Position numbers and translations under genes: made by a program. Of a stretch of DNA of 64,000 nucleotides, positions 19,969 to 45,625 are shown piece after piece. This stretch comes from an uncultured Rhodobiaceae bacterium. Lineage in GTDB: Bacteria > Pseudomonadota > Alphaproteobacteria > Parvibaculales > Parvibaculaceae. Each line of letters opens with the position of its first letter. Within the stretch, counting starts at the first letter, position 1. The DNA lies in NCBI GenBank assembly GCA_913057645.1, contig CAJXOU010000005.1:5060-69059 (forward strand). The letters are read 5' to 3'. The notes below the pieces were generated by a model. It made no database searches. It saw nothing but the letters and a program-made list of their open reading frames with translations, and was not told the DNA's origin.

Positions 19969-22784
<2,816 letters not shown>

Positions 22785-23213
22785 TTAACCAGCGACCGGC
22801 ATAGCGGCTCCGGAAAGCGTGCGCCTTTGGGCTTGTCGATCGATCCTGCGTCGTCAGAGCACACAGAACTCTCCGTGTCTGTGGACAGATCCAGGTCCGG
22901 AGCAGGCATTCGAGTTGAATGGGATGGGCGTGAGTTCGACTCCGTTCCTTTTTCCTGTTGGCTTCGCAGAAATCTCGGAACAACACTCAGCCACTGCAAA
23001 AGCCTTGCATCGCGATAGAATCGCGCTTGAGCATCTGACGGGCGTTCAGGCATCGCGTGAGCGAAGGCGGACAACAGGCTGCATGCCTCCATGACGGTTT
23101 GAACGATGAGGAAAGTGCAGGAGTTGATGCTAGGCTGACCTGGGTTGCTGGTCGCATGGCGTGGGTCCCGCCGCTGCGCCGCACGACGATGACGAGAAGG
23201 GGGAGTCTGAGAA

Positions 23214-24917
23214 ATGGAAACATCCGGTCTTTCCGCCGGTCTTTCCCATGTGAGGGGAGCGTCGACGCCGCCTCTCCGCCGGGAAACCATCGGGGCGGCT
23301 CTTTCGGCGGCCGCCGAAACCTGGCCCGAAAGGGAAGCGCTCGTCTCCGTTCATCAGGGCATCCGCTGGACATATGGCGAGTTGAACGGGAAGGCGGAGG
23401 CGCTTGCCGCCGGGCTCTTCGCTCTGGGGCTGCGGCGTGGTGACCGGCTCGGCATATGGGCGCCGAACTGCGCGGAGTGGACGCTGACGCAGTTCGCGAC
23501 GGCAAAGGCGGGCATCGTTCTCGTCAACATCAACCCGGCGTACAGGCTCTCCGAGCTCGAGTACACGCTGAACAAGGTCGGTGTTGCAGCGCTCGTCACG
23601 CCGGAGCGTTTCAAGACCTCCGAATATGTTGCGATGGTGAACGAGCTGGCGCCGGAGATCGCGCGCTCTGCGGGAACCATAGCCTCCGCCCGTCTGCCCC
23701 ATCTGAAACACGCGATCCAGATCGGCGGCATACCGGCAAAGGGCTGGCTCGGTTTCGACGATATCGCCCGCCTCGCCACCGCGGAAAGCCGCCGCGCCAT
23801 TGAGGGAACGGCGGGTGAGCTTGATTGCCGCGACCCCATCAACATCCAGTTCACGAGCGGTACGACCGGTCTGCCCAAGGGTGCGACGCTGTCGCACTTC
23901 AACATTCTCAACAACGGCTTCTTCGTCGGCCGGTCGATCGGCTTGAAGGAAGGCGACCGCCTCTGCATTCCGGTGCCGCTCTATCACTGCTTCGGCATGG
24001 TCATGGGCAATCTCGGCTGTCTCACGCATGGCGCGACGATGGTCTATCCGGCCGATGCCTTCGACCCGCTGGCCGTCCTGCAGGCGGTGGAGAAGGAGCG
24101 GTGCACGGGACTCTACGGTGTGCCGACAATGTTCATCGCGGAGCTTGGTCATCCGGAGTTCGGCAAGTTCGATCTCTCCTCGCTCCGCACGGGCTGCATG
24201 GCGGGCTCGCCCTGTCCCGTGGAGGTGATGAAGCAGGTGATCTCCCGAATGCACATGAAGGACGTCACCATCGCCTATGGCATGACGGAGACGAGCCCGG
24301 TGAGCTTCCAGACCGGCGAGGACGATCCGCTGGAGCGCCGTGTCTCGACCATCGGACGCGTACAGCCGCACCTTGAATGCAAGGTGGTGGACCTTGACGG
24401 CAAGACGGTACCGAGCGGCGAACCCGGTGAGCTCTGCACGCGGGGTTATTCCGTGATGATCGGCTATTGGGACGATGACGAGAAGACCGCCGAGGCCATC
24501 GACGCCGAGGGCTGGATGCACACGGGCGACCTCGCGACCATCGACGCGGAAGGCTATGGCAACATCGTCGGACGCCTGAAGGACATGGTGATCCGGGGCG
24601 GCGAGAATGTCTATCCGCGCGAGATCGAGGAATACCTCTACCGCCATCCGAAGGTGGAAGATGTCGCCGTGGTCGGTGTGCCGGATGAGAAGTTCGGCGA
24701 GGAGATTTGCGCCTGGGTAAAGCTCAAGCCGGGTGAAACGGCGAGCGAGGATGAGATCAAGACCTTCTGCAAGGGGCAGATCGCACACTACAAGGTGCCG
24801 CGTTATGTGCGCTTCGTTGCCGAGTTCCCGATGACCGTCACGGGCAAGGTCCAGAAGTTCCAGATTCGCGACTCCATGATCGCGGAACTGAAGCTCGACA
24901 CCGCGAAGACGGCTTGA
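23214..24917 (+). CDS. AMP-dependent acyl-CoA synthetase/ligase
   Basis: AMP-binding signature [18 protein letters not shown] plus the later [12 protein letters not shown] and GKVQK motifs. AAGGGGGAG RBS upstream. Confidence 0.85.
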
Positions 24918-25776
24918 ACGTTGAATGCATGGCTATTGCTTGTCGCGATGCGCAATCGTTCCAGGATGGATAGATTTCGGCGACGTCCATGAGAGCCGCC
25001 ATGTCGAGGATGGTCAGCACGCCGCCGCGCACGCGCACGATGCCGTTTTCCCTCAGGTTTCGCATTACCCGGCTTACGTGAACCTGGGTCAGGCCAAGTG
25101 CATCCGCGATGCTTTGTTGGCGAAGCGGAAACGGAAACGAAGAGTCATCTGTCAGCTTCTTCATCGTCAATCGTTCGTGAAGATCAAGGATCAGTCGCGC
25201 CAGGCGTTGCTCTGCGTTGCGTCGGCCGAGGTCGACAAGGCGCGCCTCGCTGGCCTCCCGGCCTGAGAAACATATGTCGACGAAAGCCCAGACAAGGGCA
25301 GGATCGTCCTCGGCGATTTCCTTGAGATTGCTGACCTCAAAGGCGCAATAGTCGACCGGCGTCACGCTTTGTACCGGCGTGCGGACTTGATTGCGCATGA
25401 TCAACTCGCCGCCCGCAACGTCGCCCGGAAGTAGAATGGAGAGCACCTGGCGCCGCCCATCGGGCGTTACGACAGAGCGAAGCGCCCATCCCTGTCTCAG
25501 GACGATGATGCGTCCAGGTGCTTCGCCGGGTCTGTAGATGTGCTGACGTGCGCGAACGGAGCCTTCGGTCTTGCGCCCCCGCTTCACGTCCGGCGCGATC
25601 CCCATGACAGCACCGCAAAAGCCGACGTGCCGAAACGGACAAGCGTCGCATCCTTCGGATGAATCGGGTGCCGCTCTGTTTTCTGCGCTGCTGGACCCAG
25701 AGTGGGTAGTTTCGTTTCTTATACTCAAAGAACATTCACCGCCGAGCATGGCCCGGCCCGCCTCAGGGATAGGCAT
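24838..25776 (-). CDS. Crp/Fnr-family transcriptional regulator, FNR-type cysteine pattern
   Basis: cNMP-binding-like barrel plus a C-terminal HTH ([22 protein letters not shown]). N-terminal C43-x2-C46-x7-C54 plus C144 match the positions of the FNR cluster ligands. The start and the about 35-aa C-terminal extension are uncertain. Confidence 0.75.
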
Positions 25777-26061
25777 GTAAACTGTTTCACACGGGGTAGT
25801 TAGCGCGTCCGAACCAACTTTTCCAGATTGAACACGAATGAAATGTGGTTTCCTAACTTAAGTTATAAACATTATATATAAGTATTAGTTATAATAAATC
25901 TATGGCGAATACATGGTAATTAACCATTTATTCTACATCAACCAATAGACTCACAATTAGTAACTCCGATTCGGTGACAAAACGTCGCAATTACTGCGTT
26001 GTCATGGAGGGGTGAGAGGGAAGTGCCCGGCGAAGCCGGGTGGCTGTAAACGGGGGCCGTT

Positions 26062-27408
26062 ATGACGAAAGCCGAAATATCTACCGCGGACCGGGAGTCG
26101 CGCCTGAGCTTCATGGAAGTATCCGAGACGACAGGAACAGCGCTTCGCGACTTCTGGAAGGTTCTGGAGCCGCACCTGCCGCAAATTCTCGATGGTTTCT
26201 ATGCCCATATCGGCTCCGTGTCGGAGCTTTCGGCGCTGTTGGGCAATCAAGCGCCCCGTCTGAAGCAGGCGCAGGGCACGCATTGGGGCCGACTCTTTTC
26301 GGGCACCTTCGATGACGCCTATATGCACAGTGTGCACACAATCGGACTCACGCATAACAGGATCGGGCTGGAGCCGCGCTGGTACATCGGTGGCTACAAG
26401 TACGTGATGAACAGGTTGGTCGAGATCGCGGTGAAGAAGTATCGGTGGACGCCCGGCCAGCTTTCTGAAGTCCTTTGCGCTGTGAACACGGCCGTTTGCC
26501 TTGACATGGACCTCGCAATTTCGGCCTATCAGGATGCGATGGTCGAAGAACGGGCTGGACGGCAAAGGGCGCTGGAAGCGGCCATTTCCGATTTCGACGT
26601 TGCCGTCAACGAGATCATCAAATCGGTAGCTTCGGCCTCGACGGAACTGCAGGCCTCGGCGCAGGCCATGTCTGTTACAGCGGAGCAGACGAGCGCCAAG
26701 ACGACGACCGTCGCCGCTGCATCGGAAGAAGCCTCCACCAACGTGCAGACAGTTGCCTCCGCGAGTGAGCAGCTTTCGAGTTCGATTGCGGAAATCGGCA
26801 GGCAGGCGTCGATGTCGACCAAAATAGCTGGGCAGGCGGTGCAGGATGCTCATCGAACGGATGAGAAGGTACAGGGTCTTGCCGAGGCCGCTCAGAAGAT
26901 CGGCGACGTCGTGACCCTCATCAACGATATCGCCGCCCAGACAAATCTGCTCGCGCTGAACGCGACCATCGAGGGTGCGAGGGCCGGCGAGGCGGGCAAG
27001 GGCTTCGCCGTCGTTGCCTCGGAGGTAAAAAGCCTCGCCAACCAGACGGCCAAGGCGACCGAGGAAATTGCCGAGCAAATCAAGACGATGCAGGGCGCAA
27101 CGCAGGAATCGGTCGACGCGATCAAGTCGATAGAGCAGACCATCACCGAAATGAATCAGATCGCGACGTCGATTGCCGCCGCCGTGGATGAGCAGGACGC
27201 CGCGACGAACGAAATCGCCCGCAACGTCCAGGAAGCCGCACGCGGCACCCAGGATGTCTCCTCCAACATCGCTTCTGTTGCCGAGGCGGCGACGGAAACA
27301 GGCTCCGCAGCGGCGCAGATATCCGGCTCCTCCGACATTCTGGCACGTCAGGCAGAGACGCTCCGCCAGCAGGTCGATACGTTCCTGAGCCGTGCAAGGG
27401 CCGCCTGA
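26062..27408 (+). CDS. Globin-coupled methyl-accepting chemotaxis protein (HemAT-like, cytoplasmic)
   Basis: N-terminal protoglobin/globin-coupled-sensor pattern (..[21 protein letters not shown]..). C-terminal MCP signalling hairpin ([36 protein letters not shown]). No TM segment is seen. Confidence 0.85.
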
Positions 27409-27420
27409 CCAATACGACTG

Positions 27421-30135
27421 TTGGGGAGTATCGAAGTGGCGCGCCGCCAATCTGCCCCGTCGTCCTCGCCTGCAGTGTTCGTCTTCGATCCTGCGACGAG
27501 CCGACTCGCTTCGCGGAATGCCGTTGCGGGTGAGATGCTTTCCGCGCTCGGCTGGAAGGGTGGCGAGCTCCCCACTCTTTCAGCAGTGGAGCGACTCCTT
27601 GTTCAGGGAAGCAAGGTCTCCGCGGATCCGCAGACTGTCGTCGGTGATCAGGAGCCCAATTACGAACTGCGCAGGCGCTGCCATCGCCCGGATAGCAGTG
27701 AGTTGATCCTTACCCGCATCTGGACACCGGGATCCAGCACGACGCTGATCGTCACGGACATCACGCAGTCGGTACAGGAAGAGCGGCAACTTCGATTCGC
27801 GCAACTGATCATCGACCGCTTGATGAAATCCGAGTCGCTCTCGGTTGCGCTTGGCTCCATTTTGCATGCGGTCCTGCTCTATGGGGGCTGGCAGAAAGGT
27901 GTTGCCTGGATACCAAGCGGCGGGCGCCCTTCGATGCGCAAGAGTCTTGCCCGTGCCAGTGCCGAAGCGATGGCGGACGAGGAAAAGGCACTCGAGTTCG
28001 CCCGGACCATGGCGGAGACGTGCCAGATGACCGGGGAGACCTCCCATGCGTGGGACGAGTCTGGCGGTTGTGTCGCCCTCCCGCTCAAGGCGAACGACGA
28101 GGTCATCGCTGTTCTAACTTTTCATACAACACAACCGCGCCCGCGCGATCGGCTTGCACTCGAAGTGCTTGATGGCATTGCGGATCGAATCGGCATGGCG
28201 CTCAAATGCCGGATCAACGCCGAAGAAATGACTCATGCGCGCCGGCAGTTGGACGAGTTGCTCGACGCGGCGGGGGACGCCATCGTGGCGATGGATGGCG
28301 AGCATCGTATCCGCATCTTCAACAAGCAGGCAGAAGCGATCTTTGGTTATGGCGCCGAAGAAGCGATCGGCAAGAAGCTCGACATGCTCTTGCCACGGAG
28401 CACGAGAGCACGACATCGCACACATGTGGCCCGGTTTGCGCGCGAAGACGCCTCGACCCGGGTTATGGGCCGGCGGCCCGAAGTGAAGGGTCGACGCAAG
28501 GACGGCTCGGAATTTCCGGCCGAAGCGTCCGTCTCGCGCATTACACTTGATGGTGACATCATCTTTACTGCAGTAGTGCGCGACCTGACGGCGCTGCGTC
28601 AGGCAGAAGACGCAATCAGGGCGCGAGAGCGGCAGATGCGCATGATCATCGAAGCAATGCCTTTCGGGCTTGCGACCGTCCGCCAGGCGACGGGCGAGAT
28701 CATATTCGCCAACAGTGCCTTTGGCGTGCTGGTGGATTGCGAACGGCGAAAACTCGTTGGCCGCAATTTCGCGGAGTTTGCGGGTGCCGACCTGGCTGCG
28801 ACGCTCATGGCGAGCGAAGATATGGACGGGCGGCACCGCGAAGTTGAGGATTCCCTGACCACGGGAAGCGGTGACGAGCTTCGGTGCGTCGTCTCAGCCC
28901 TGTTGCTGAGCATGGGCGGCGAAGACGTGATCCTGATCGGCTGCTACGACGTTACCGACAGGCACCGTGCGGAGGAAGCCTTGCGCGAAAGCGCATTCAA
29001 TCTTGCGGCTGCAGAGCGCATCGCCCATCTCGGCAACTGGCAGCTCGATATCGGAACAGGTGAGATTGCCTGCTCCGACGAAGCTTTCCGCATCTTTGGC
29101 GGTGAGCCGCAAGACGCGCGGCTGAAGTTGCCTGAGGTCCTGGACCGCGTTCATTCTTCCGACCGTGCCCGGATACGCGATGCGGCGAACGATGCCATAA
29201 AACTCGGCACGCCTTTCCGCACGATGTACCGGATCATTCGCGCCGGCGGCGAAACTCGCTACGTCCGCTGTGAGGCAGAGGCGATTCGCGGTCCTGATGG
29301 TGGTGTCAAACAACTCATCGGTACCGTTCTCGACATTACAGACCTCCAGAAGGCGACCGAGGAACTCCGCGCTGCGCGAAACAGAGCCGAGTACGCCAAC
29401 CAATCAAAGTCACAATTCCTGGCAAATATGAGCCACGAACTTCGAACGCCTCTCAATGCCATCATAGGGTTCTCTGAATTGATGGCGACCGGTGTCATGG
29501 GGAGGTTGGAGACCGCGCAGTATCAGGCCTATGCGAAGGATATCAATGATAGCGGTCTGCATCTCCTTGCAATCGTGAACGACATTCTGGATCTCAGTCG
29601 AATCGAGGTGGGCGCGACCGAACTCGAAGAGACCGAAATCGACGTGGAAGAACTTGCCCGGTTCTGTGTGAGGACGGTGGAGGGACGCGCCCGTACGGCA
29701 AAGGTCAGGCTGTTCCGGCAGCCGATGCCGGAAATGCCGAAGCTGTTCGCAGACCAGAGGCTTGCGCGGCAAATTCTGCTTAATCTTCTTTCGAATGCGA
29801 TCAAGTTCACGCCTGCCGGCGGAAGTGTCAGCCTCGGTGCGGAACTTACCGCGGAAGGAGAGCTGGTATTCCTTGTGGAAGACACAGGCATCGGCATCGC
29901 GGCCGAGAACATTGACCGCGTCACCGAACCGTTCATGCAGGTGGAAAATCATCTCTCGCGTCGGTTTGAGGGGGTGGGGCTCGGGCTTGCGCTTACCAAA
30001 CAGTTCGCCGAGTTGCATGACGGTACGCTGTCCATCGATAGTGTCGAAGGAAAGGGAACCCGCGTTGAGATCCGGTTTCCTGCGGTGAGGATGCGTTCTG
30101 CCTCCGAATTTCGTGTCGCTGCGGCGGGTGAATAG
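27421..30135 (+). CDS. GAF / multi-PAS sensor histidine kinase (no receiver domain)
   Basis: H-box NMSHELRTPLNAIIGFSELM with N, G1 (DTGIGI) and G2 (GVGLGLAL) boxes. Upstream lie a GAF-like segment and at least three PAS modules (e.g. DAIVAMDGEHRIRIFNKQAEAIFGY, GNWQLDIGTGEIACSDEAFRIFG). The start is TTG in the track and is uncertain. Confidence 0.85.
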   Translation: MGSIEVARRQSAPSSSPAVFVFDPATSRLASRNAVAGEMLSALGWKGGELPTLSAVERLLVQGSKVSADPQTVVGDQEPNYELRRRCHRPDSSELILTRIWTPGSSTTLIVTDITQSVQEERQLRFAQLIIDRLMKSESLSVALGSILHAVLLYGGWQKGVAWIPSGGRPSMRKSLARASAEAMADEEKALEFARTMAETCQMTGETSHAWDESGGCVALPLKANDEVIAVLTFHTTQPRPRDRLALEVLDGIADRIGMALKCRINAEEMTHARRQLDELLDAAGDAIVAMDGEHRIRIFNKQAEAIFGYGAEEAIGKKLDMLLPRSTRARHRTHVARFAREDASTRVMGRRPEVKGRRKDGSEFPAEASVSRITLDGDIIFTAVVRDLTALRQAEDAIRARERQMRMIIEAMPFGLATVRQATGEIIFANSAFGVLVDCERRKLVGRNFAEFAGADLAATLMASEDMDGRHREVEDSLTTGSGDELRCVVSALLLSMGGEDVILIGCYDVTDRHRAEEALRESAFNLAAAERIAHLGNWQLDIGTGEIACSDEAFRIFGGEPQDARLKLPEVLDRVHSSDRARIRDAANDAIKLGTPFRTMYRIIRAGGETRYVRCEAEAIRGPDGGVKQLIGTVLDITDLQKATEELRAARNRAEYANQSKSQFLANMSHELRTPLNAIIGFSELMATGVMGRLETAQYQAYAKDINDSGLHLLAIVNDILDLSRIEVGATELEETEIDVEELARFCVRTVEGRARTAKVRLFRQPMPEMPKLFADQRLARQILLNLLSNAIKFTPAGGSVSLGAELTAEGELVFLVEDTGIGIAAENIDRVTEPFMQVENHLSRRFEGVGLGLALTKQFAELHDGTLSIDSVEGKGTRVEIRFPAVRMRSASEFRVAAAGE

Positions 30136-30219
30136 ACAGCTGCCGTACGGGGTCTCTCAAGTATTTATGATGTAATAATAACAATAATTCTCATTTTTAC
30201 GCAGAGTTAATCTTATAAA

Positions 30220-30258
30220 AATAGCCTTTTCTCAAGGTAAACTGAGAAACAGGCTATT
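30220..30258 (+). promoter_or_regulatory. Large hairpin in the AT-rich leader immediately 5' of the cheA start codon
   Basis: AATAGCCTTTTCTCA (30220-30234) pairs with TGAGAAACAGGCTATT (30243-30258). This gives 15 bp with one bulged G and an 8-nt loop AGGTAAAC, ending 4 nt before ATG 30263. Confidence 0.4.
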
Positions 30259-30262
30259 GAAG

Positions 30263-33190
30263 ATGGATGATCTTCTGAAGGATTTCCTCGCGGAAACCTC
30301 CGAGTCTCTTGACCTTCTGGACAGCGAGATCGTGGAGCTGGAGCAGCGGCCAGACGATCCGGCGCTTCTGGGCAGCATCTTTCGCGTGATGCATACGATC
30401 AAGGGGACCTGTGGCTTCCTGGGGCTTCCGCGGCTCGAGGCAGTGGCGCATGCGGCTGAGGACGTGCTCGGCCGCGTCCGCGACGGCGAGCTTTCCGTTT
30501 CGCATGACGTCATATCGCAGGTGTTGACCGCGCTCGACCGCATCAAGGAACTCGTCGCCTCACTTGGCGAGACGGGTAGCGAGCCGGAAGGCGAGGACAG
30601 CGGGATTATCGGCGCTCTGAGGCGCATAGCGAGTGGCGAGACTCAGGCAGCGCCTGCAAACACGGCACCGGCGAAGCAGGGAAAGCAGGGCTCGCTCTTT
30701 GAGCGCGCAGGAGGTGCCTCCGGCATCGATACTGCCTGCGAACTGGCCTGTGCGGGCTTCATGGCGAAATCCGGGGACTGCGCTGTTCTTGAGCCGGAGA
30801 TGCTGAAGCTGCAATTCGCGCTGGCCAGGGGATTCGAGGTTGCGCTCGAAAAGACACCGGGTATCGACGTTGCCGATGTATTGAGCTGCCTCACGGACAA
30901 TGGCTGGACCCAGCAGGACCTGGCGCTGCTCGAAGCAGAACTCGCAGCTGCCTTCCGATCTCTCGAAGTGGGCGAGGAGGATATCTCCGCGCTGCTCCTC
31001 AGTCTTTATCGCGGCAAGTCACCAGATGCGGAAGTTCCCGAAGAGGATGCGGTGCCGGCGAAGACTGCCTCAACGGAGAAGCCCCAGGTTAGCAACGACA
31101 AGCACGATGCTGGGCACGGTCAAACGCAGACGCTTCGCGTCAACATCAGCGTCCTCGAAGACCTGATGACGCTCGTCAGCGAGCTTGTTCTGACGCGCAA
31201 CCAGCTTCTGCAGATCATGCGCAGCCACGATGAGACTCCCTTCGCCGCGCCCCTTCAGCGCTTGAATCAGGTGACGACCGAACTGCAGGAAAGCGTGATG
31301 ATGACGCGCATGCAGCCGATCGGAAATGCCTGGGGAAAGCTCCCGCGTCTGGTACGTGACCTTGCGCAGGAACTGGGCAAGAAGATTGAACTGGTGATGA
31401 CCGGCGCCGACACCGAACTCGACCGCCAGATCCTCGAGTCGATCCGAGATCCGCTCACGCATATGGTTCGGAACTCCGCCGACCATGGTATCGAGTCTTC
31501 GGCCGATCGGGTCGCCTCTGGCAAGCTGGAGCACGGAACGATCAAACTTTCGGCGCGACACGAAGGCGGCCACATCGTCGTCGTTGTGTCAGATGACGGG
31601 CGCGGTCTGCCGACAGCCCGCATTCGCGAGAAGGTGGTGGCCAACGGGATTGCGACAGAGTCGCAGCTCGAAGGCATGAGTGAACAGCAGATACAGCAGT
31701 TCATATTCCGGCCCGGTTTCTCCACGGCAGCTGCAGTGACGAGCGTTTCGGGCCGAGGCGTCGGCATGGACGTCGTCCGGAACAACATCGAGAAGATCGG
31801 CGGGATCATTGAGTTCCAGTCGACAGAGGGTGTCGGCTCCAGCTTCATCATCAAGATCCCTCTCACGCTCGCGATCGTCTCCGCGCTCATCGTCGAATGC
31901 GAGGGCGAGCGGTTCGCGCTGCCGCAGAACAGTGTGGTTGAACTGGTCCGCATCAACCCCACCGCAAGCAAGGGACTCGAAAACATCAACGGCAGGCCGG
32001 TTTACCGTCTGCGAGACCGGCTTCTGCCGCTCGTCTCGCTGAGCGAGATACTGGGGCTGTCGGACTCCGCTGAAGCGCCCCCGGGAGATCGTGAGGTTGC
32101 GGACAGCACTTATGTTGTTGTCTCTCAGGTTGGTGCGCTCGTCTTCGGCATCATCGTGGACAAGGTGTTCGACACCGAGGAAATTGTTGTAAAGCCAGTG
32201 TCGCGCTGCATGCGTCACATCTCCTGCTTCTCCGGCACGACGATCCTGGGCGACGGGCGGGTGATCATGATCCTCGATCCTAACGGGCTCGCTTCGGCCG
32301 TCTCCGCCTCGCCGCATGCCGAAGCTGCGTCGCTCGCGGAGACCGGGCGCGGCTCACGCCGCAACGAAGCTGTTTCGATGTTGGTCTTCGAGGCTCGCGA
32401 CAAGGGGCCGAAGGCCGTGCCGCTTTCACTCGTTGCGCGACTTGAAGAGGCGGATCTCGGTACAACCGAGAGGGCCGGTTCCCGTACGGTGTTGCAGTAT
32501 CGCGGCGGATTGATGCCTCTGATCGACCTGGATGGCAATCCGGCGGCACAGGTGGGAAGGCATCCGATACTCGTCTTCGTGGACGGGAACCGCATGCTGG
32601 GCCTCGTAGTCGACCGCGTCGTCGACATTGTTGAAGCGCCGCTCGACCTTCATCTCGCAGGAGGTAGTCGCCCGGGAATCCTCGGTAGCGCAATCATCGC
32701 CGGCAACGCCACGGACATTATCGATACTGTCTATTATCTCCGTCAGAGCGACGCTGACTGGTTCGAGGTCAAAACGGAGAGCCCGTTCGGCATGGAGAGT
32801 GAGCGGCAGGTTCTGCTTGTCGAGGACAGTGCCTTCTTCCGCAATCTGCTGATCCCGATGCTCACCATTGCGGGCTATTCGGTGACAGTCGCCGAGCACG
32901 CTGAGGCGGCCATTTCGCTCTGCAAGGATGGTGCTCATTTCGACATCATCGTGTCGGACATCGAAATGCCGGGTCTTTCTGGTTTTGATCTGGTGAGAAC
33001 CCTGCGCGCTGACGAAAGGCTGGGCGAGGTGCCGATCGTCGCGCTCTCCTCACACGCGAATGCCAAAGACATCGAACGCGGGTTGGAAGCGGGCTTCACG
33101 GACTACGTTACGAAGCTCGATCCCAAGGCACTGCTTGGCGTTCTTTCCCGCACATCGTCCGACGAGTCCCGCAAGGAGATCGCAGTATGA
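30263..33190 (+). CDS. cheA: Hybrid chemotaxis histidine kinase CheA (Hpt, atypical module, dimerisation, HATPase, 2x CheW-like, receiver)
   Basis: Begins MDDLLKDFLAETSE with the phospho-His in RVMHTIKG. Kinase core is present (DPLTHMVRNSADHGIE, GRGVGMDVV). There are two CheW-like segments and a C-terminal REC (VLLVEDSAFF..IIVSDIEMPGLSG..K). ATGA overlap with cheW. Confidence 0.9.
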   Translation: MDDLLKDFLAETSESLDLLDSEIVELEQRPDDPALLGSIFRVMHTIKGTCGFLGLPRLEAVAHAAEDVLGRVRDGELSVSHDVISQVLTALDRIKELVASLGETGSEPEGEDSGIIGALRRIASGETQAAPANTAPAKQGKQGSLFERAGGASGIDTACELACAGFMAKSGDCAVLEPEMLKLQFALARGFEVALEKTPGIDVADVLSCLTDNGWTQQDLALLEAELAAAFRSLEVGEEDISALLLSLYRGKSPDAEVPEEDAVPAKTASTEKPQVSNDKHDAGHGQTQTLRVNISVLEDLMTLVSELVLTRNQLLQIMRSHDETPFAAPLQRLNQVTTELQESVMMTRMQPIGNAWGKLPRLVRDLAQELGKKIELVMTGADTELDRQILESIRDPLTHMVRNSADHGIESSADRVASGKLEHGTIKLSARHEGGHIVVVVSDDGRGLPTARIREKVVANGIATESQLEGMSEQQIQQFIFRPGFSTAAAVTSVSGRGVGMDVVRNNIEKIGGIIEFQSTEGVGSSFIIKIPLTLAIVSALIVECEGERFALPQNSVVELVRINPTASKGLENINGRPVYRLRDRLLPLVSLSEILGLSDSAEAPPGDREVADSTYVVVSQVGALVFGIIVDKVFDTEEIVVKPVSRCMRHISCFSGTTILGDGRVIMILDPNGLASAVSASPHAEAASLAETGRGSRRNEAVSMLVFEARDKGPKAVPLSLVARLEEADLGTTERAGSRTVLQYRGGLMPLIDLDGNPAAQVGRHPILVFVDGNRMLGLVVDRVVDIVEAPLDLHLAGGSRPGILGSAIIAGNATDIIDTVYYLRQSDADWFEVKTESPFGMESERQVLLVEDSAFFRNLLIPMLTIAGYSVTVAEHAEAAISLCKDGAHFDIIVSDIEMPGLSGFDLVRTLRADERLGEVPIVALSSHANAKDIERGLEAGFTDYVTKLDPKALLGVLSRTSSDESRKEIAV

Positions 33191-33675
33191 ATACGTCCTG
33201 TCAGACCAGCGCTGCTGCGGATGGCGTGGAGACGGCCACCGAGGATTACGTGACGATGACCGTCGCCGGGCAGGCGTTCGGCATTCCGGTGCTCAGCGTG
33301 CGCGACGTATTGAGCCCGCAGATCATCACTCGTATCCCCCTGGCGTCTCCCGAGATTGCGGGATCGTTGAACCTCAGGGGCCGCATCGTGACAGCGATCA
33401 ACATGCGCACAAGGCTTGGGCTGCCCGCGGATGGCTTCGTCGAGAGGGCGATGGCTGTCGTCGTCGAGCATGATGACGAGCCATTCAGCCTGCTCGTCGA
33501 TGAGGTGGGAGAAGTTCTGAGCCTGCCGATCGGCCAGCGGCAGGCTGTGCCGGCGACACTCGACGCGCGCTGGCGCGACGTCTCCCAGGGGATCTACCGG
33601 CTCGACGATCGGCTGCTGCTTGTTCTGAGTGTTACAAGCGTGCTCGGCACGATCGGATTCGACCCGGTTCACTGA
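33187..33675 (+). CDS. cheW: Chemotaxis coupling protein CheW
   Basis: 162-aa single CheW-like domain (..FGIPVLSVRDVL.., ..LLVDEVGEVL..), translationally coupled to cheA. Confidence 0.85.
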   Translation: MNTSCQTSAAADGVETATEDYVTMTVAGQAFGIPVLSVRDVLSPQIITRIPLASPEIAGSLNLRGRIVTAINMRTRLGLPADGFVERAMAVVVEHDDEPFSLLVDEVGEVLSLPIGQRQAVPATLDARWRDVSQGIYRLDDRLLLVLSVTSVLGTIGFDPVH

Positions 33676-33695
33676 ACGCAACGGAGGAAAGAACT

Positions 33696-34082
33696 ATGGC
33701 CGTTAACATGAAGATGCCGATTCTGATCGTGGACGACTACAAGACGATGCTGCGCATTGTCAGAAATCTGCTGACCAAGCTCGGCTTTTCCGACATCGAC
33801 GAAGCGACCGACGGCATGGATGCCTTGGCAAAGCTCAAGAATCGAAATTACGGCCTCGTCGTATCCGACTGGAACATGCAACCGATGACAGGCTACGAGT
33901 TGCTGCAGAAGGTGCGCGGGGATGACAGACTGAAGTCCCTCCCATTCGTCATGGTCACGGCCGAGTCGAAGGTCGAGAACGTGATCGCCGCGCGCCAGGC
34001 TGGCGTGAACAACTACATTATCAAGCCTTTTAGCGCCGAAGTGCTGAAGGCGAAGTTGAAGACGGTGCTGGGAGATTTCTGA
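33696..34082 (+). CDS. cheY: Chemotaxis response regulator CheY
   Basis: 128-aa stand-alone receiver (ILIVDD, VVSDWNMQPMTG, MVTA, K in IIKPF) with a GGAGGA RBS. Confidence 0.9.
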   Translation: MAVNMKMPILIVDDYKTMLRIVRNLLTKLGFSDIDEATDGMDALAKLKNRNYGLVVSDWNMQPMTGYELLQKVRGDDRLKSLPFVMVTAESKVENVIAARQAGVNNYIIKPFSAEVLKAKLKTVLGDF

Positions 34083-34588
34083 TGATGGGGAAGGGAAAAC
34101 TCGATCTCGTCGAACGTTTGACAAACGAATGCATCGACTTGTGCCAGACTGTATTGCGCGGACGCAAGCGACTTGAGCCGCTGCTCGATCCCGCTTTCCG
34201 CACACAAAAATTGCTGCGGGCCGTCAACGAACAGAAGACGGCGGTAAACGAGATGGAAGCAGCCGTTGATCGCATCATCGCAGCGGTCGAACGAATGTCG
34301 GAAATTGATTTTTCGGATGCCGCTGCGGCAGAACAGCAGCTTTCCGCTTGCTGCGACGAGATCATGGAGGCTTGTTGCTTCCAGGACCTGACCGGTCAAC
34401 GTATGTCGCAGGTGAACGATACCTTGAACGAAGTCGAGGCCGTGCTTGCCAGCATTGCCGATGGGCGAGCTTCGCCGCAGGTCTCCGTCGCGGGGGAAAG
34501 CCTGCTCAACGGTCCCGCCCTTCCCGGCAACGGCGTCGAACAGGACGTCGTGGACCGCCTTCTCGCAACAAGCGAAGGAAGGCGATAG
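34082..34588 (+). CDS. Short CheZ-like CheY-P phosphatase (tentative)
   Basis: Contains the CheZ catalytic signature FQDLTGQ (D-x3-Q) within a predicted long helix. The C-terminal ..QDVVDRLL.. resembles the CheZ CheY-binding peptide. 1-nt TGATG junction with cheY. Confidence 0.6.
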   Translation: MMGKGKLDLVERLTNECIDLCQTVLRGRKRLEPLLDPAFRTQKLLRAVNEQKTAVNEMEAAVDRIIAAVERMSEIDFSDAAAAEQQLSACCDEIMEACCFQDLTGQRMSQVNDTLNEVEAVLASIADGRASPQVSVAGESLLNGPALPGNGVEQDVVDRLLATSEGRR

Positions 34589-34595
34589 GAGGGAA

Positions 34596-35714
34596 ATGAA
34601 AAGTGGTTCAGAGAAGCTGACAGACAAGGAAGATCGATCTTGCCACGTGATGGTCGTTGACGACTCCGCCATCGCGAGGGGCATCGTCACCCGCACGCTG
34701 GAGGAGGAACAGGGCATCAAGGTTGTGGCCTCCGTGCCGAACGGACTCATGGCCCTGAAGGCGATCGGCAATCACGAGATCGACGTCGTGGTTCTGGATA
34801 TCGAGATGCCGCAACTCGATGGGCTCGCAGCACTTCCGCAATTGCTGGAGCGCCGTCCCGGTCTCAAGGTCATTATGGTCTCATCGGCGAGCCAGCGCGA
34901 TGCGGATATATCGTTGAAGACCATGGCCATGGGCGCTGCGGATTATGTCGCAAAGCCAATGGCCGGTTTGGGTGGCGCCGAAAGTTTTCGAGCGGAGCTT
35001 GTGCGCAAGGTGCGCGAACACGGCGCGCGCCGGACGGCGTCGGCAAGGAAGAAGCACACGCCGGCAAAATCCGCTGCTTCAACTGGAGTTCAGCCGGCCG
35101 CCTCGCGGAAGCCCGCTCGCAAGCTTGTCAAACCCGAGGTCATCGCAATCGGCTCTTCGACCGGCGGCCCGCAGGCGCTTGCCGAGGTGTTGCGGAACAT
35201 CGATCCGGCCTTCACGCAACCCATTCTGGTCACGCAGCACATGCCTGCCACCTTCACGGCGCTTCTCGCGGAACACATGACGCGCTATTCGGGCCGCCTC
35301 GCCGCGGAGGCCCGCGATGGCGAACCGCTTGAGCCCGGACGCATTTACATAGCGCCGGGCGGCAAGCACATGCTGGTCGAACAGCGCGCGGCGGGCGGAG
35401 CGATTATCCGGCTCGACGATGGCCCGCCGGAGAATTCCTGCAAGCCTGCCGTGGATCCTATGCTTCGAAGCCTTGCAAAGACCTTCGGCGAACGTTTGCT
35501 CGTCGTCATTCTGACGGGCATGGGGTGTGACGGACTGAAGGGGTCGCAGACTGTCATTGAGGAGGGCGGCCGCGTACTCGCACAGGATCGCGAGAGCAGT
35601 GTCGTATGGGGAATGCCTGGCGCGGTCGCTCAAGCTGGCCTGTGCGAGGAAATTCTGCCGTTGTGGCAGATAGGTGCAGCGATCGCTCGTATCGCCGGGG
35701 GAGAGGGAAAATGA
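34596..35714 (+). CDS. cheB: Protein-glutamate methylesterase/glutaminase CheB
   Basis: REC (VMVVDDSAIARG, VLDIEMPQLDG) plus a methylesterase domain (IGSSTGGPQAL, HMPATFT, GMGCDG). Start moved to ATG 34596, which has AGGAGGG upstream. Confidence 0.9.
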   Translation: MKSGSEKLTDKEDRSCHVMVVDDSAIARGIVTRTLEEEQGIKVVASVPNGLMALKAIGNHEIDVVVLDIEMPQLDGLAALPQLLERRPGLKVIMVSSASQRDADISLKTMAMGAADYVAKPMAGLGGAESFRAELVRKVREHGARRTASARKKHTPAKSAASTGVQPAASRKPARKLVKPEVIAIGSSTGGPQALAEVLRNIDPAFTQPILVTQHMPATFTALLAEHMTRYSGRLAAEARDGEPLEPGRIYIAPGGKHMLVEQRAAGGAIIRLDDGPPENSCKPAVDPMLRSLAKTFGERLLVVILTGMGCDGLKGSQTVIEEGGRVLAQDRESSVVWGMPGAVAQAGLCEEILPLWQIGAAIARIAGGEGK

Positions 35715-36529
35715 ACAATCTCGAATTCGACTATTTGAAGCAGGTTCTCTACGAACGCTCAGGTCTCGTCGTGACCCGGGAGAAGGGATACCTCATTGAG
35801 AGCCGGCTGGCGCCGCTTGCGCGGCGGAACGGCCTCGAAAGCGTCGATCGTTTCATCGAGGAAACTCGTCGCACGCGAAATGAAGCTGTGCTTACGCAGA
35901 TCATTGATGCGATGACGACGAACGAGACGCTTTTCTTTCGTGATGCCTGGCCATTTGAGCGTTTGAGCAAGACCTTGATGCCGGAGGTCATGGCGAAGAC
36001 GAAGACATCCCGGCGGATCAGGATATGGAGCGCCGCCTGTTCGAGCGGACAGGAGCCATATTCCCTCGCAATGACGCTGGCGGAAATGGCCCCAGCACTG
36101 GCTGGCTGGCAGGTTGAGATTGTCGCCACGGATATTTCGGATGCCATGCTTGCTCGAGCTGAGGCGGGCCGGTATTCGCTGTTCGAAGTATCGCGCGGTT
36201 TGCCCGAACACATGCTCCGCAAGTACCTGCTCCCTGAAAAGGATGGCTGGCGGGTCAAGGATAGTTTGCGCGAGATGATTGAGTTCCGGCGCTACAATCT
36301 GCTCGAAGATCCCTACCAGAGTGGTCTTGGACCTTTCGACATCGTCTTCTGTCGCAATGTGCTGATCTACTTCGATGAAGAAACGCGAAAGCGAGTCTTC
36401 ACGGGGCTTGCTCGTGTCATGCGCCCCTGGGGTTACCTCTGCCTCGGCGGAGCGGAAACGGTGGTTGGAATCTCGGATGCCTTCCGTGTACTGCCCGGGG
36501 AAAGAGGGCTTTTCGGACTCGCGCGATAG
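35711..36529 (+). CDS. cheR: Chemotaxis protein methyltransferase CheR
   Basis: CheR N-terminal helical domain plus a SAM MTase (IWSAACSSGQEPYSLAM, DIVFCRNVLIYFD). ATGA overlap with cheB. Confidence 0.9.
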   Translation: MNNLEFDYLKQVLYERSGLVVTREKGYLIESRLAPLARRNGLESVDRFIEETRRTRNEAVLTQIIDAMTTNETLFFRDAWPFERLSKTLMPEVMAKTKTSRRIRIWSAACSSGQEPYSLAMTLAEMAPALAGWQVEIVATDISDAMLARAEAGRYSLFEVSRGLPEHMLRKYLLPEKDGWRVKDSLREMIEFRRYNLLEDPYQSGLGPFDIVFCRNVLIYFDEETRKRVFTGLARVMRPWGYLCLGGAETVVGISDAFRVLPGERGLFGLAR

Positions 36530-36764
36530 ATCGTTTCATTGGAGGTGTCCAATGTGCGCGATGAGTTGAAGGAAAGCGCTCGGACTGGCTGGCTGGTTGA
36601 CAGTGTGCCGGTGATGGCCGGATTCAGGATGTTGATGAGATCGTCGGCGAGCCGTCCATAGCCACGGCGCGATGGGCACCTGGATTTGCGGTCAGTCGGC
36701 TCAATGCAGTTGACCTGCCCCGACGGACCTCGCATCGTGCTGTCGCACGGATGCGGGTAGCGGA

Positions 36765-37379
36765 ATGAACATCGATGGCGTGCTGATCGCCGGTGGCGGG
36801 GCATCACGGATGGGAGGAAGCGAAAAGCCGCTCGAGCTCCTTTGCGGAAGCCCGCTCATCGAGCATCTGATCGATATCGTGCGGCCGCAGGTTGCGACGC
36901 TGGCCCTCAACGTGAAGGAAGAAGCTGCTACGCTCTATGGCGGCACGGCGACTTCCGGTCTTCCGCTCATCTTCGACCGGTTCGGCGGCGATGCCGGCCC
37001 CTTGGGCGGCGTACTGGCGGGGCTCGAATGGGCCGCCGCGCGAGGCAGCGCATGGCTTGCAACATTTCCCGCCGACACCCCGTTCCTGCCTCGAGATCTT
37101 GTGGCGAGGCTCGCCGCGGAAGCGCACCGGGGCACGCCCGTGGTCGCCGTGACGGACCGGAAGGTGCAGGGCCTCTGTGCGCTGTGGCCCGTCAGCTGCC
37201 AAACCGTACTGGCCGAAGGCATCGAAGCGGGCCGGTATCGCAGCCTCTGGTGGACCCTCGACGACCTTGGCGCGGTGCGCTGTCCATTCGACGATACGCT
37301 GGCGTTCTTCAACGTGAACACGAAAGACGACCTTGCGACGGCCGAGGTCATGGCGCGGAACAGGGACGGCCGCGCATGA
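36765..37379 (+). CDS. mobA: Molybdenum cofactor guanylyltransferase
   Basis: MobA N-terminal signature GVLIAGGGASRMGG..K and its position next to a molybdoenzyme (nasA) regulon. Confidence 0.8.
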   Translation: MNIDGVLIAGGGASRMGGSEKPLELLCGSPLIEHLIDIVRPQVATLALNVKEEAATLYGGTATSGLPLIFDRFGGDAGPLGGVLAGLEWAAARGSAWLATFPADTPFLPRDLVARLAAEAHRGTPVVAVTDRKVQGLCALWPVSCQTVLAEGIEAGRYRSLWWTLDDLGAVRCPFDDTLAFFNVNTKDDLATAEVMARNRDGRA

Positions 37380-37451
37380 ATGTCGCGCATTTCCTTGCGA
37401 AACGCTTCGGGCTTTCTCTCCGACGGGACGCACGGGGCCGCCTGTGCTGTC

Positions 37452-37467
37452 TGGAACGGAACTTGCT
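37452..37467 (+). promoter_or_regulatory. Candidate sigma-54 (RpoN) -24/-12 promoter upstream of nasT
   Basis: TGGAACGGAACTTGCT against consensus TGGCACG-N4-TTGCW has correct GG/GC spacing and one mismatch in the -24 element. Lies about 70 nt upstream of the nasT GTG. Confidence 0.45.
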
Positions 37468-37537
37468 GTATATACCGCAGCCAGGCAACACGGGTTCTGC
37501 CTGAGCGGTACGTGACTCCGGAACGGCGGAGCGGTAA

Positions 37538-38131
37538 GTGGACAGCGTAAAACCCCTCAAGATCCTCATTATCGACAGCAACGACGAACGCGCCGCTGTG
37601 GTGGAGGCCGGCCTTGCGGGCTATGGCGACGCGCAGATTCTGCGTATGGGGTTGCTGGTCGATCTTGCGCGAAAGATCGAGGAAATCCAGCCCGACGTGA
37701 TCTTCGTCGATGTGGACTCACCGGACCGTGACACGCTGGAAAACATGCGCAGCGTTTCCGATGTGCTGCCGCGTCCCATCGTCATGTTCGTTGAGGAAAG
37801 TGGCGCTTCGCTTGCGGAAGAGGCGCTACGTGCGGGCGTCAGCGCCTATATCGTCGACGGGCTGAGCGAGAAACGCGTGAAGCCGATTCTCGACGTCGCC
37901 ATCCTGCGCTTCAAGGTTTTCCAGAAGATGCGGGAAGAACTCGACAAGGCGAAATCCGATCTCGCAAGCCGCAAGGTCGTGGAGCGCGCCAAGGGCCTGC
38001 TCATGGAGCAGCGCAGGCTCTCAGAGGAGGATGCCTACAGGCTCCTGCGCAATACGGCGATGAAGGAAGGAAAGTCGATTCTCGAGATCGCCGACAGTCT
38101 GATTTCGATCTCGAGATTGCTCAAGGGCTAG
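37538..38131 (+). CDS. nasT: ANTAR-domain antiterminator response regulator NasT
   Basis: N-terminal receiver-like domain plus a C-terminal ANTAR helix bundle (VVERAKGLLMEQRRLSEEDAYRLLRNTAMKEGKSILEIA). Sits at the head of the nitrate-assimilation genes. GTG start. Confidence 0.8.
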   Translation: MDSVKPLKILIIDSNDERAAVVEAGLAGYGDAQILRMGLLVDLARKIEEIQPDVIFVDVDSPDRDTLENMRSVSDVLPRPIVMFVEESGASLAEEALRAGVSAYIVDGLSEKRVKPILDVAILRFKVFQKMREELDKAKSDLASRKVVERAKGLLMEQRRLSEEDAYRLLRNTAMKEGKSILEIADSLISISRLLKG

Positions 38132-38319
38132 GCAAAAGCTGGTCGCGCCGTAATCACCTCGTTGAATTTTTGTGCAATGCAAACAAAAATTCCCCTTTAA
38201 AATCAAAACTCTATTGCGCTGCGGCGACGCTTACGTATTCTCGATGATAGATGAGCACGCGGATCGATCCGCGGCGCTCCCCGCCCAGGGATCAACGGCG
38301 ACCCTCCGCGGACATATCC

Positions 38320-38355
38320 GGGCCAATGGCGGCCCACCTCAGACAATGGCGTCTG
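38320..38355 (+). promoter_or_regulatory. ANTAR target: tandem hexaloop hairpins in the porin-nrt leader
   Basis: GGGCC-AATGGC-GGCCC (38320-38335) and CAGAC-AATGGC-GTCTG (38340-38355). Both have 5-bp stems and identical hexaloops with A at position 1 and G at position 4, separated by 4 nt. Confidence 0.65.
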
Positions 38356-38394
38356 TTTCGGCGAGCGATCGCTGGGCAGGCGCTTTTTTGTTTT
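38349..38394 (+). terminator. Leader intrinsic terminator overlapping the second ANTAR hairpin
   Basis: GCGTCTG (38349-38355) pairs with CAGGCGC (38377-38383), with one G-U pair. An inner AGC/GCT helix is present, followed by TTTTTTGTTTT. The 5' arm shares nucleotides with the 3' arm of hairpin 2. Confidence 0.65.
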
Positions 38395-38430
38395 CCGCGG
38401 CAGGACCGCGAAATGAAGGGTGGCTGGCAA

Positions 38431-39657: not shown

Positions 39658-39683
39658 CCCGCCAATCCTGCAAGGAGTCCGAC

Positions 39684-41099: not shown

Positions 41100-41110
41100 G
41101 GAGACGTCAG

Positions 41111-42007
41111 ATGAAGTCTGTGGCACTCACCATCGTCGAGCCGGCAGAGGCCCCGGACCCGGCCGGGCTCCAGCCCGCCCCCGCCCCCGATGCAACAACG
41201 GAGACAGCATCGCGCGAGCGCAAACCTCTCGAAGCGCTGGCGCGCGCGATTCTCCTTCCCGCCATCACCTTCGGGCTCGTCCTTCTCGGCTGGACAATCA
41301 TGCAGGCGGCCTTCGTGCCGTCCTTTCCGGATGTTCCTACCGTCTGGAACAAGGCGATCGAGATCTTCTCCGACCCCTTCTACGTCTACGGCCCCAACGA
41401 CATGGGCGTTGCCTGGCAGGTGATGTATTCGCTGGGCCGTGTTGTGGCGGGCTTCCTGCTTGCCGTTGCCGTCGGCATTCCCGCCGGGTTCCTGATCGGC
41501 GCCAACAAGACTTTCGAGCAGGCCTGGATGCCGCTCATCGCGATCCTCCGGCCGGTGAGCCCGCTTGCCTGGCTGCCGATCGGCCTTCTCATTTTCCGGG
41601 CGGTCGACCCCTCCGCGATCTTCGTCATCTTCATCACCAGCATCTGGCCGATGATCCTGAACACGGCGGCGGGCGTGAAGGCCATTCCGCAGGACTATCT
41701 GAACGTCGCCCGCGTGCTGAACTTCAACCGCCGCGAAATGGTCACGAAAATCTACGTGCCGGCAACGCTGCCCTACATGCTGACCGGCATGCAGCTCTCT
41801 CTCGGCACCGCCTGGATGGTGATCGTCGCCGCGGAGATGCTGACGGGCGGCATCGGCATCGGCTTCTACATCTGGGACGAATGGAACAACCTTTCGGTCC
41901 CCTCGATCATCGTTGCCATCGTCATCATCGGTTGCGTCGGCATTCTGCTCGAAGCGGGCATGAACCATATCCGCCGCCGCTACGACTATGCGTCAAAGCA
42001 GGAGTAA
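41111..42007 (+). CDS. nrtB: Nitrate ABC transporter permease
   Basis: BPD-type permease with multiple TM segments and an EAA-like loop. GAGGAGA RBS before ATG 41111 (the track start GTG 41096 remains possible). Confidence 0.85.
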   Translation: MKSVALTIVEPAEAPDPAGLQPAPAPDATTETASRERKPLEALARAILLPAITFGLVLLGWTIMQAAFVPSFPDVPTVWNKAIEIFSDPFYVYGPNDMGVAWQVMYSLGRVVAGFLLAVAVGIPAGFLIGANKTFEQAWMPLIAILRPVSPLAWLPIGLLIFRAVDPSAIFVIFITSIWPMILNTAAGVKAIPQDYLNVARVLNFNRREMVTKIYVPATLPYMLTGMQLSLGTAWMVIVAAEMLTGGIGIGFYIWDEWNNLSVPSIIVAIVIIGCVGILLEAGMNHIRRRYDYASKQE

Positions 42008-42011
42008 CGTC

Positions 42012-42812: not shown

Positions 42813-42814
42813 CC

Positions 42815-45271: not shown

Positions 45272-45275
45272 GTCG

Positions 45276-45608: not shown

Positions 45609-45625
45609 CGCTCCTGCCCACACAA

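Follow-up and report, generated by a model that had tools for sequence, protein, structure and literature searches.

The closest described relatives of the locus analysed here are the chemotaxis operons of the F5 class, a flagellar class (PMC10542144). A CheA with two CheW domains followed by a REC domain has been reported for the F5 systems of A. brasilense, R. centenum, C. crescentus and A. caulinodans (PMC10542144). Che1 of A. brasilense has been classified as F5 (PMC6759762) and also influences clumping and cell length (PMC8561660), and deletion of the F5 operon cheOp1 in M. gryphiswaldense abolishes aerotaxis (PMC12442639). CheA itself has been described as a histidine kinase without a sensor or input domain (PMC10542144). 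We analysed a stretch of 64,000 nucleotides from an uncultured Rhodobiaceae bacterium (contig CAJXOU010000005.1, positions 5,060 to 69,059; referred to below as the window), in which positions 24838-36529 encode an FNR-like regulator, a HemAT-like globin methyl-accepting chemotaxis protein (MCP), a sensor kinase and cheA-W-Y-Z-B-R. This gene set is probably a conserved chromosomal F5-type chemotaxis module of the genus Parvibaculum that is specialised for oxygen, in other words an aerotaxis unit. The window comes from a marine Parvibaculum sp.: a CheA cluster 100% identical to the window protein carries the name Parvibaculum sp., and marine metagenomes contain an identical CheW on many contigs. 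P. lavamentivorans (62.3% GC) is an aerobe with a polar flagellum (PMC3368416).

An earlier note, made from the sequence of the window alone, had proposed an acquired oxygen/redox chemosensory island of ten consecutive genes. Pfam and NCBIfam recognise nine. The notion of a self-contained chemosensory module with oxygen/redox sensing is borne out by the domains and by their conserved linkage. The features of the locus are as follows.

22697-22772, plus strand: tRNA-Ala(GGC), found by ARAGORN and Rfam, with the module on its 3' side
23214-24917, plus strand: acyl-CoA ligase with AMP-binding domains
24838-25776, minus strand: FNR-like Crp/Fnr regulator (Pfam cNMP_binding and HTH_Crp_2), probable start at 25749
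25777-26061, no strand: AT-rich spacer with the divergent fnr-mcp promoter region, GC 0.42, with conserved blocks
26062-27408, plus strand: globin-coupled MCP (Pfam Protoglobin and MCPsignal)
27421-30135, plus strand: sensor histidine kinase of 904 aa, with GAF, three PAS, HisKA and HATPase domains (Pfam)
30136-30262, no strand: second AT-rich spacer, 127 nt, GC 0.34, presumed cheAWYZBR promoter
30263-33190, plus strand: CheA hybrid kinase with Hpt, globin-derived, dimerisation, HATPase, two CheW and REC domains (Pfam)
30683-31048, plus strand: putative degenerate group-I truncated-haemoglobin domain inside CheA (profiles, relatives and AlphaFold2 model)
33187-33675, plus strand: CheW (Pfam), its start overlapping the cheA stop (ATGA)
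33696-34082, plus strand: CheY of E. coli type (NCBIfam PRK10610, 150 bits)
34082-34588, plus strand: short CheZ phosphatase (Pfam CheZ, E=9e-9), with a TGATG junction to cheY
34596-35714, plus strand: CheB methylesterase with REC and CheB_methylest domains (Pfam, NCBIfam)
35711-36529, plus strand: CheR methyltransferase (Pfam), with an ATGA junction to cheB

Gene organization and chemotaxis class

According to Pfam, the CheA of the module combines two CheW domains with a C-terminal REC domain and has no canonical P2 domain. Its nearest named relatives outside the family come from Azospirillum and related Rhodospirillales. The CheA core is ~60% identical to the Azospirillum protein, and the one operon looked up among the Rhodospirillales relatives (L091) is a five-gene cheAWYBR cluster beside fliI/fliJ. 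We infer that the module belongs to the F5 (Che1-like, flagellar) class, an assignment based on architecture and nearest relatives rather than on class-specific hidden Markov models. The earlier view of a locus unlike standard described chemotaxis systems thus holds for its make-up as a self-contained oxygen/redox module, but not for the class, as the architecture of CheA is that of F5 and nothing exotic.

Compared with the F5 operons (A. brasilense Che1, R. centenum Che1 and M. gryphiswaldense cheOp1), the module keeps the CheA domain set without canonical P2 and the core order cheA-W-Y-B-R. It differs in having cheZ after cheY and a CheY of E. coli type, so that its gene set is not the one typical of Che1. 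In this CheY, the equivalents of DD, D57, T87, Y106 and K109 are all present. The accompanying CheZ has the catalytic FQDLTGQ and a C-terminal CheY-binding-like EQDVVDRLL, and scores 35.9 bits in Pfam against a gathering threshold of 30.7. Judged by the homology of its parts, the che operon is a mosaic in which E. coli-type CheY and CheZ are set into an F5 framework. Further differences from F5 operons are a globin-derived domain between P1 and P3 of CheA, the union with the FNR-like gene, the globin MCP and a kinase with a predicted haem PAS domain, and a location that is not beside fliI/fliJ, chpT or ctrA.

The genes are closely packed. The earlier note had the che genes joined by overlaps throughout, and this is so for three of the five junctions (A/W, ATGA; Y/Z, TGATG; B/R, ATGA). 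The other two are spacers of 20 nt (W/Y) and 7 nt (Z/B), both with Shine-Dalgarno-like sequences. We placed the cheA start at 30263, since in the alignment the MDDLL start is common to all CheA homologues. The kinase gene begins 13-28 nt downstream of mcp, and the spacer at 30136-30262 presumably holds the promoter of cheAWYZBR.

Conservation and genomic location

All Parvibaculum loci recovered have the module with its gene order unchanged and a CheA 74-100% identical to the window protein; one locus (L105) is without the kinase. Wherever a Parvibaculum contig is long enough (about a dozen loci, CheA 74-85%), fnr, mcp and cheA-R occur together, and in the recovered loci the FNR-like gene is always divergently linked to the module. 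The locus with CheA at 74% identity (L087) shares the left context rpsA-cmk-aroA-FYDLN-tRNA-Ala with the window, where the names of the first four genes were taken from the syntenic L087 gene calls. In L087, the fnr stop lies 62 nt after tRNA-Ala and the ligase is absent. As the same left context thus exists without the ligase, this gene is an insert specific to the window's lineage that separates the tRNA from the module, rather than an ancestral neighbour. Within window 22697-24973, which holds the tRNA and the ligase segment, the right boundary of this segment apparently lies inside the last fnr codons. The FNR-like protein is thereby longer by ~40 residues, and fnr and the ligase gene overlap convergently by 80 nt.

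The adjoining tRNA gene is not always the same. It is tRNA-Ala(GGC) in L087 and L103 and tRNA-Arg(CCG) in L097 (1353-1429), L099 (8101-8177) and L105 (5660-5736). The tRNA-Arg group has variable inserts of 0.1-2.2 kb at this place, one of them a ZIP transporter. L103 has the complete 11.6-kb module in the opposite orientation to L087 but at the same site, with identical flanks (L087 4635-16369 versus L103 8889-20632): tRNA-Ala lies on one side, and genes for FMO-type monooxygenases lie on the other. The breakpoints of this inversion have no detectable inverted repeats. The right neighbour of the module in L102 corresponds to the window gene at 57.6 kb. L100 is 94% identical to L099 over the module, and the homology ends just past the position of the L099 tRNA-Arg. 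In L100 (1-8206), a weak phage-integrase match, ArdC and an AAA_13 protein adjoin the module, with no tRNA in this 8 kb, which is consistent with an integrative element.

The composition of the module is also distinctive, as the earlier note had judged by eye. Its GC content is 0.594 versus 0.644 in the remainder of the window, and mean GC at third codon positions (GC3) is 0.71 versus 0.78 elsewhere in the window (Mann-Whitney p=0.001). With an 11.7-kb sliding segment, dinucleotide and tetranucleotide distances peak over the module at the highest value of any window position. Codon statistics are shifted as well, although the shift in usage is mild (p=0.018), a uniform move of ~10 points toward A/T-ending codons, and three long genes stay within the range of the flanks. 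The gene singled out earlier for low GC, cheY, is indeed GC-poor, but this stems from codon positions 1 and 2, that is, from amino-acid composition; its GC3 of 0.80 is the highest in the module. The two spacers called extremely AT-rich do contain the lowest-GC 100-nt windows of the 64 kb (25777-26061, core GC 0.23-0.32, and 30136-30262). Both are present in all Parvibaculum species compared, and AT-rich divergent spacers are found at equivalent positions in the distant L090 cluster. The GC deficit of ~4-5 points against most longer flanks recurs in most other Parvibaculum species, L100 being an exception.

Our conclusion is that this cassette-like module has long resided in a variable locus linked to tRNA genes. 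A bolder account, compatible with aerotaxis, would have it acquired by a Parvibaculum ancestor from a lower-GC donor, moved between tRNA hot spots and never fully ameliorated. We regard this as possible, though not the favoured explanation. It would fit the place of the module immediately 3' of tRNA-Ala(GGC) in the window (apart from the ligase insert), L087 and L103 and 3' of tRNA-Arg(CCG) in L097, L099 and L105, the clean inversion in L103, and the point near the tRNA-Arg site at which L100 departs from L099 and continues into a segment resembling an integrative and conjugative element. Lower-GC Parvibaculaceae and other relatives have related clusters at 52-55% GC, and the CheY and CheZ unlike those of Che1 operons are what one would expect of a mosaic operon. 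Against mobility, no att repeats or terminal inverted repeats were found at the ends of the module, and the CheA tree requires a single relocation from tRNA-Ala to tRNA-Arg, which ordinary rearrangement at a tRNA gene could also produce. Incomplete amelioration accounts less well for a GC offset that is still there at 74% CheA identity than selection, or weak codon bias among regulatory genes, would. Caution is needed in reading unusual composition, AT-rich spacers or a neighbouring tRNA gene as signs of transfer, because an old module maintained by vertical descent can show all of them.

A globin-derived domain in CheA

The Cys-rich insert in CheA to which the earlier note had drawn attention is real: four Cys residues lie in an insert between P1 and P3, where P2 would sit. 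By homology and modelling, this insert is a degenerate group-I truncated haemoglobin (trHb). Pfam gave no Bac_globin match when applied to the window CheA insert alone, so the homology was established through relatives, profiles and structure. CheA homologues at 52-55% identity carry a Pfam Bac_globin domain at the exact position of the insert. A profile of the His-less clade alone matches cyanoglobin over its full length (E=6e-4), and a mixed profile matches group-I truncated haemoglobins with E=3e-22. A library-wide search with the insert profile returned mostly stand-alone and multi-domain truncated haemoglobins. The AlphaFold2 model of the insert (predicted local distance difference test 88), for which the modelling alignment included canonical globin sequences, has truncated haemoglobins as all of its top 36 Foldseek matches in the PDB; the top 27 are all group I, with TM of about 0.6-0.7 and probability 1.0.

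The insert has nonetheless diverged from group I truncated haemoglobins (trHbN, GlbN) at key positions. In the window protein, the F8 His is replaced by Leu207 and the B10 Tyr by Cys163, while the E7 Gln184 is retained. The same pattern of Leu at F8, invariant Cys at B10 and invariant Gln at E7, together with a GW motif, characterises the Parvibaculum clade (20 sequences, identity down to 31%). Among the relatives, one subgroup retains the two canonical residues (Tyr at B10, His at F8), a second carries Lys at F8, and a third (62-63% identity) keeps the His. Since both the F8 His and the B10 Tyr have been replaced, haem binding by the window insert is unlikely. The relic globin, with its invariant Cys, is still under selection.

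A Pfam-recognised trHb between P1 and P3 is present in the CheAs of L090 (10001-12985) and L092/L093 (10001-12961) and in proteins P0064-P0070, P0077, P0079, P0083, P0096 and P0103. The Parvibaculum insert shares with such fusions (P0064, P0065, P0068, P0079 and P0096; L090 and L092) the fold, detectable homology and the position in CheA, and differs from them in the F8 Leu, the B10 Cys and the failure of Pfam to recognise it. Canonical trHb-CheA genes lie in Che1-like operons, with the order chpT-cheAWYBR-ctrA-like-fliIJ in L092/L093, and the L090 cluster also has a Crp-family gene and a PAS-MCP. One of the fusions, P0066 (1121 aa), contains two tandem globin domains. The literature we searched, including a dedicated survey of CheA architectures, contains no description of a globin domain in CheA. 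CheA has been described as sensor-less (PMC10542144); in the F5 CheAs of this lineage, a trHb, canonical in some relatives, occupies the P1-P3 region.

It might be argued that the CheA globin is a working sensor, binding haem and sensing O2 or NO in distant relatives and acting as a Cys163 thiol redox switch in Parvibaculum. We consider this unlikely. If true, CheA itself would be a sensor kinase, contradicting the textbook view that it has no input domain.

Globin-coupled receptor and sensor kinase

The earlier note had assigned oxygen/redox-sensing modules to three components, and the case is stronger than stated there, as a FixL-type haem PAS domain and the globin-derived CheA domain can be added. 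The MCP matches Protoglobin (E=1e-37) and MCPsignal (E=1e-32) in Pfam, and no membrane or HAMP domain was detected in it. Its globin matches the HemAT sensor domain 1or4 (E=5e-11) and keeps the FY (Tyr B10) and GLTHNRIGL (proximal His) motifs. Across nine orthologous loci the globin region is very strongly conserved, whole-MCP identity to the window protein being 84-92%. These features predict binding of O2 through haem. HemAT proteins (B. subtilis and H. salinarum; Atu1027 of A. tumefaciens) are built alike: a sensor globin at the N-terminus, containing B10 Tyr and the proximal His, is joined to an MCP domain, with no membrane or HAMP domain detected. In contrast to them, the MCP of the module is encoded within a che module and would be co-transcribed with a sensor kinase. 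F5 systems pair with receptors of the 38H class. The signalling arms of this MCP are ~19-20 heptads long; in alignments with PDB sequences only, there are no indels near the tip relative to TM1143 (44H) and a one-heptad deletion per arm relative to Tsr (36H).

The kinase consists of an N-terminal PAS-like plus GAF region, a haem-type PAS1 domain (nt 28222-28602), two further PAS domains, HisKA and HATPase. The multiple PAS/GAF domains noted earlier can thus be sharpened to a specific haem-PAS prediction: FixL and DosP haem domains make up all the top PDB matches of PAS1 (E=2.6e-20), and its proximal His and the residue after it, an Arg, align with theirs. A pattern search found the proximal His in five of eight orthologous kinases and missed it in L103 and L106/L107. 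Unlike FixL and DosP, the kinase has an extra N-terminal PAS-like plus GAF region and two more PAS domains, and no response-regulator transcription factor that could serve as a FixJ-like partner occurs among the neighbouring genes. In NCBIfam, its DHp/CA region scores best against PdhS/DivJ cell-cycle kinase models. DivJ-type kinases phosphorylate single-domain receivers. Because of this resemblance, we favour a receiver within the module as the kinase target, by analogy.

The N-terminal 275 aa (PAS-like plus GAF) are homologous to a stand-alone 314-aa protein of L088 (8936-9880; E=1e-31). As this homologue sits upstream of cheA, the N-terminal module, and not only the kinase, would be tied to the che operon. 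In L088, a 53%-GC Parvibaculaceae genome without fnr, mcp and the kinase, the 314-aa protein lies directly upstream of cheAWYZBR.

FNR-like regulator and intergenic spacers

The regulator has an N-terminal CxxCx7C pattern and one central Cys. The former is conserved in 9 of 10 orthologues and the latter in 10 of 10; L108 is truncated, and all orthologues that cover these residues keep them. The four conserved Cys are thus likely to hold an O2-labile Fe-S cluster. The Crp/Fnr fold, the Cys pattern and the best NCBIfam match (FnrL) are shared with the FnrL/FnrN/AadR regulators, from which the protein differs in scoring 78 bits against a cut-off of 300, in its recognition helix (TQVHVSR, without the Glu that recognises the FNR box) and in having no TTGAT-N4-ATCAA site in the spacers. 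The label 'FNR-type' is apt for the sensor half, while the DNA specificity it implies is in doubt. The C-terminal extension of ~40 residues is encoded where fnr and the ligase gene overlap.

Across nine species, AT-rich blocks are conserved in the fnr-mcp spacer, and a promoter scan places a sigma-70-like site at 25866-25895. The window has just two copies of AAGTATT, one per spacer (25880-25886 and 30159-30165), and in most species the sequence is followed by TAATAA. In the second spacer, the AAGTATT..TAATAA element is retained in six other Parvibaculum loci and not in L087, L103 and L105. A further motif, TTAACCAT at 25920-25927, occurs once in the 64 kb and is kept in the fnr-mcp spacer of all species in the nine-species alignment, with one or two substitutions in some (TTAACTAT, TTAACTGT). 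We take it to be a Caulobacter CtrA half-site; a full CtrA box (TTAA-N7-TTAA) was found neither in the window nor in the related loci. Since AT-rich k-mers are expected in AT-rich DNA, it is the conservation of these motifs that makes them candidate operators. In the mcp 5' untranslated region, a GC-rich hairpin, CCCGGC-GAA-GCCGGG, lies at about 26025-26045, ~20 nt before the mcp start codon. It precedes the ribosome-binding site and is kept in nine species with one compensatory pair.

Proposed function

In the aerotaxis unit that we propose, the HemAT-like globin MCP would bind O2 via haem and, together with CheW, modulate the hybrid CheA. CheA would phosphorylate the E. coli-type CheY, which would act on the polar flagellar motor. 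CheZ, and possibly the REC domain of CheA, would clear the signal quickly, and CheB and CheR would adapt the receptor. The haem-PAS kinase, if co-transcribed with mcp, probably adds a second O2-dependent phosphoryl input to CheY, CheB or the CheA REC domain. The FNR-like protein, likely with its O2-labile Fe-S cluster, probably sets how strongly the mcp-kinase unit and the cheAWYZBR unit are expressed. Its sites of action would be the two conserved AT-rich promoter regions, with an operator other than the classical FNR box. The relic trHb would fill the P1-P3 region of CheA, with its haem ligand lost and its Cys invariant, while still under selection.

A number of observations weigh against this reading. 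The Pfam scan of the open reading frames of the 64-kb window revealed no flagellar or pilus genes, in agreement with the earlier note. The CheY is only 32-33% identical to the CheY of Che1-like operons. A CheZ beside a CheA-REC is atypical, because 93% of genomes with a single CheA-REC are without such phosphatases (PMC10542144). The basis of the F5 assignment, given above, belongs here too. In PAS1 of the kinase, the column of the O2-contacting Arg220 (BjFixL numbering) is occupied by Pro, with two Arg just before it, so that the equivalent of this residue is not aligned. The kinase is missing from L105, though from no other orthologous locus, and must therefore be dispensable. The recognition helix of the regulator lacks the Glu of the E--SR motif. 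A search for the canonical FNR box TTGAT-N4-ATCAA, allowing up to two mismatches, gave nothing convincing in either spacer, the best match deviating at two positions; over the window as a whole, matches exceed chance only marginally (21 observed versus 13.5 expected). Given the absence of a canonical box, it is gene linkage that points to the FNR-like protein as the probable regulator of the module. The dedicated FNR-type regulator of the earlier note accordingly stands as regards the four Cys and the constant divergent linkage, but not the classical operator or the E--SR helix. Finally, with its deviating composition and its link to a tRNA gene, the module could have been acquired in the distant past.

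The same facts can be turned toward another output, in which the module would serve biofilm, cell-length or cell-cycle traits instead of flagellar aerotaxis. This seems improbable to us. The lack of adjacent flagellar genes, the hybrid CheA with its REC domain, the effects of A. brasilense Che1 on clumping and cell length (PMC8561660) and the PdhS/DivJ-like core of the kinase are in its favour. So is the conservation in the promoter of TTAACCAT, presumably CtrA-half-site-like. On the other side, the F5 architecture belongs to a flagellar class (PMC10542144), and an E. coli-type CheY with all motor-signalling residues and a dedicated CheZ would suit a fast motor output. Che1-like relatives adjoin fliI/fliJ, and it is aerotaxis that is abolished when the F5 cheOp1 is deleted in Magnetospirillum (PMC12442639).

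With aerotaxis as the preferred reading, the module would bring together four candidate oxygen/redox modules of different chemistry in a single conserved unit that also contains a full che operon: an Fe-S regulator, a globin receptor, a haem-PAS kinase and a globin relic. Parvibaculum would therefore be a compact model for studying how aerotaxis combines several oxygen inputs, and what role a second kinase plays in such a pathway. New in this analysis are the globin-derived CheA domain, the location of a FixL-type kinase within a che module, the combination of E. coli-type CheY and CheZ with an F5 framework, and the conserved linkage to an atypical FNR-like regulator.

Evidence against recent acquisition, and strain-variable DNA

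That the module is a recently acquired genomic island, inserted by horizontal transfer between the ligase and mobA, is very unlikely and largely refuted: the lower GC and GC3 with maximal oligonucleotide distance, the very AT-rich spacers, tRNA-Ala ~2 kb upstream and a congeneric metagenome-assembled genome (L007) with an 87%-identical ligase and no che genes beside it might suggest such an event, but all Parvibaculum loci recovered contain the module in one gene order while CheA identity falls gradually from 100% to 74%, the left synteny extends to L087, most other species have the GC offset and all have the AT-rich spacers, the long genes have ordinary codon usage, and no integrase, transposase or att-like repeat (tRNA 3' ends) was found in the module or at its ends. 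Conserved synteny and F5 architecture go together with a composition that is still distinct from the flanks.

The strains most similar to the window point the same way. Four loci that are 99.2% identical to it (L001, L002, L094 and L095) keep the module and are without 36572-49077, a 12.5-kb nitrate-assimilation cluster of GC 0.644 with mobA, ANTAR/NasT, a porin-like gene, nrtABC, nirB, nasA and a tetrapyrrole methylase. In these strains, cheR is joined to tetR by a clean 13-nt replacement of the nas cluster. The strain-variable DNA of the region is therefore the nas cluster and not the che module. Regarding the neighbours named in the earlier note, the ligase and mobA do flank the module, but the former is the lineage-specific insert described above, and the latter belongs to the strain-variable segment. 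No relative with the ligase directly adjacent to mobA was found; near-identical strains instead lack the mobA-nas cluster. In a genome scan for a ligase-mobA junction with the ligase as query, the only close match was the Parvibaculum genome L007, which shares nothing with the window beyond the ligase.

An Rfam scan of the window detected tRNA only. Upstream of the module lie the housekeeping genes addAB, folC, accD, trpB, trpF and pyrF, followed by rpsA, cmk, aroA, the small FYDLN gene and tRNA-Ala. Downstream, the Pfam scan of the window reading frames revealed the nitrate-assimilation cluster and genes of lipid metabolism.

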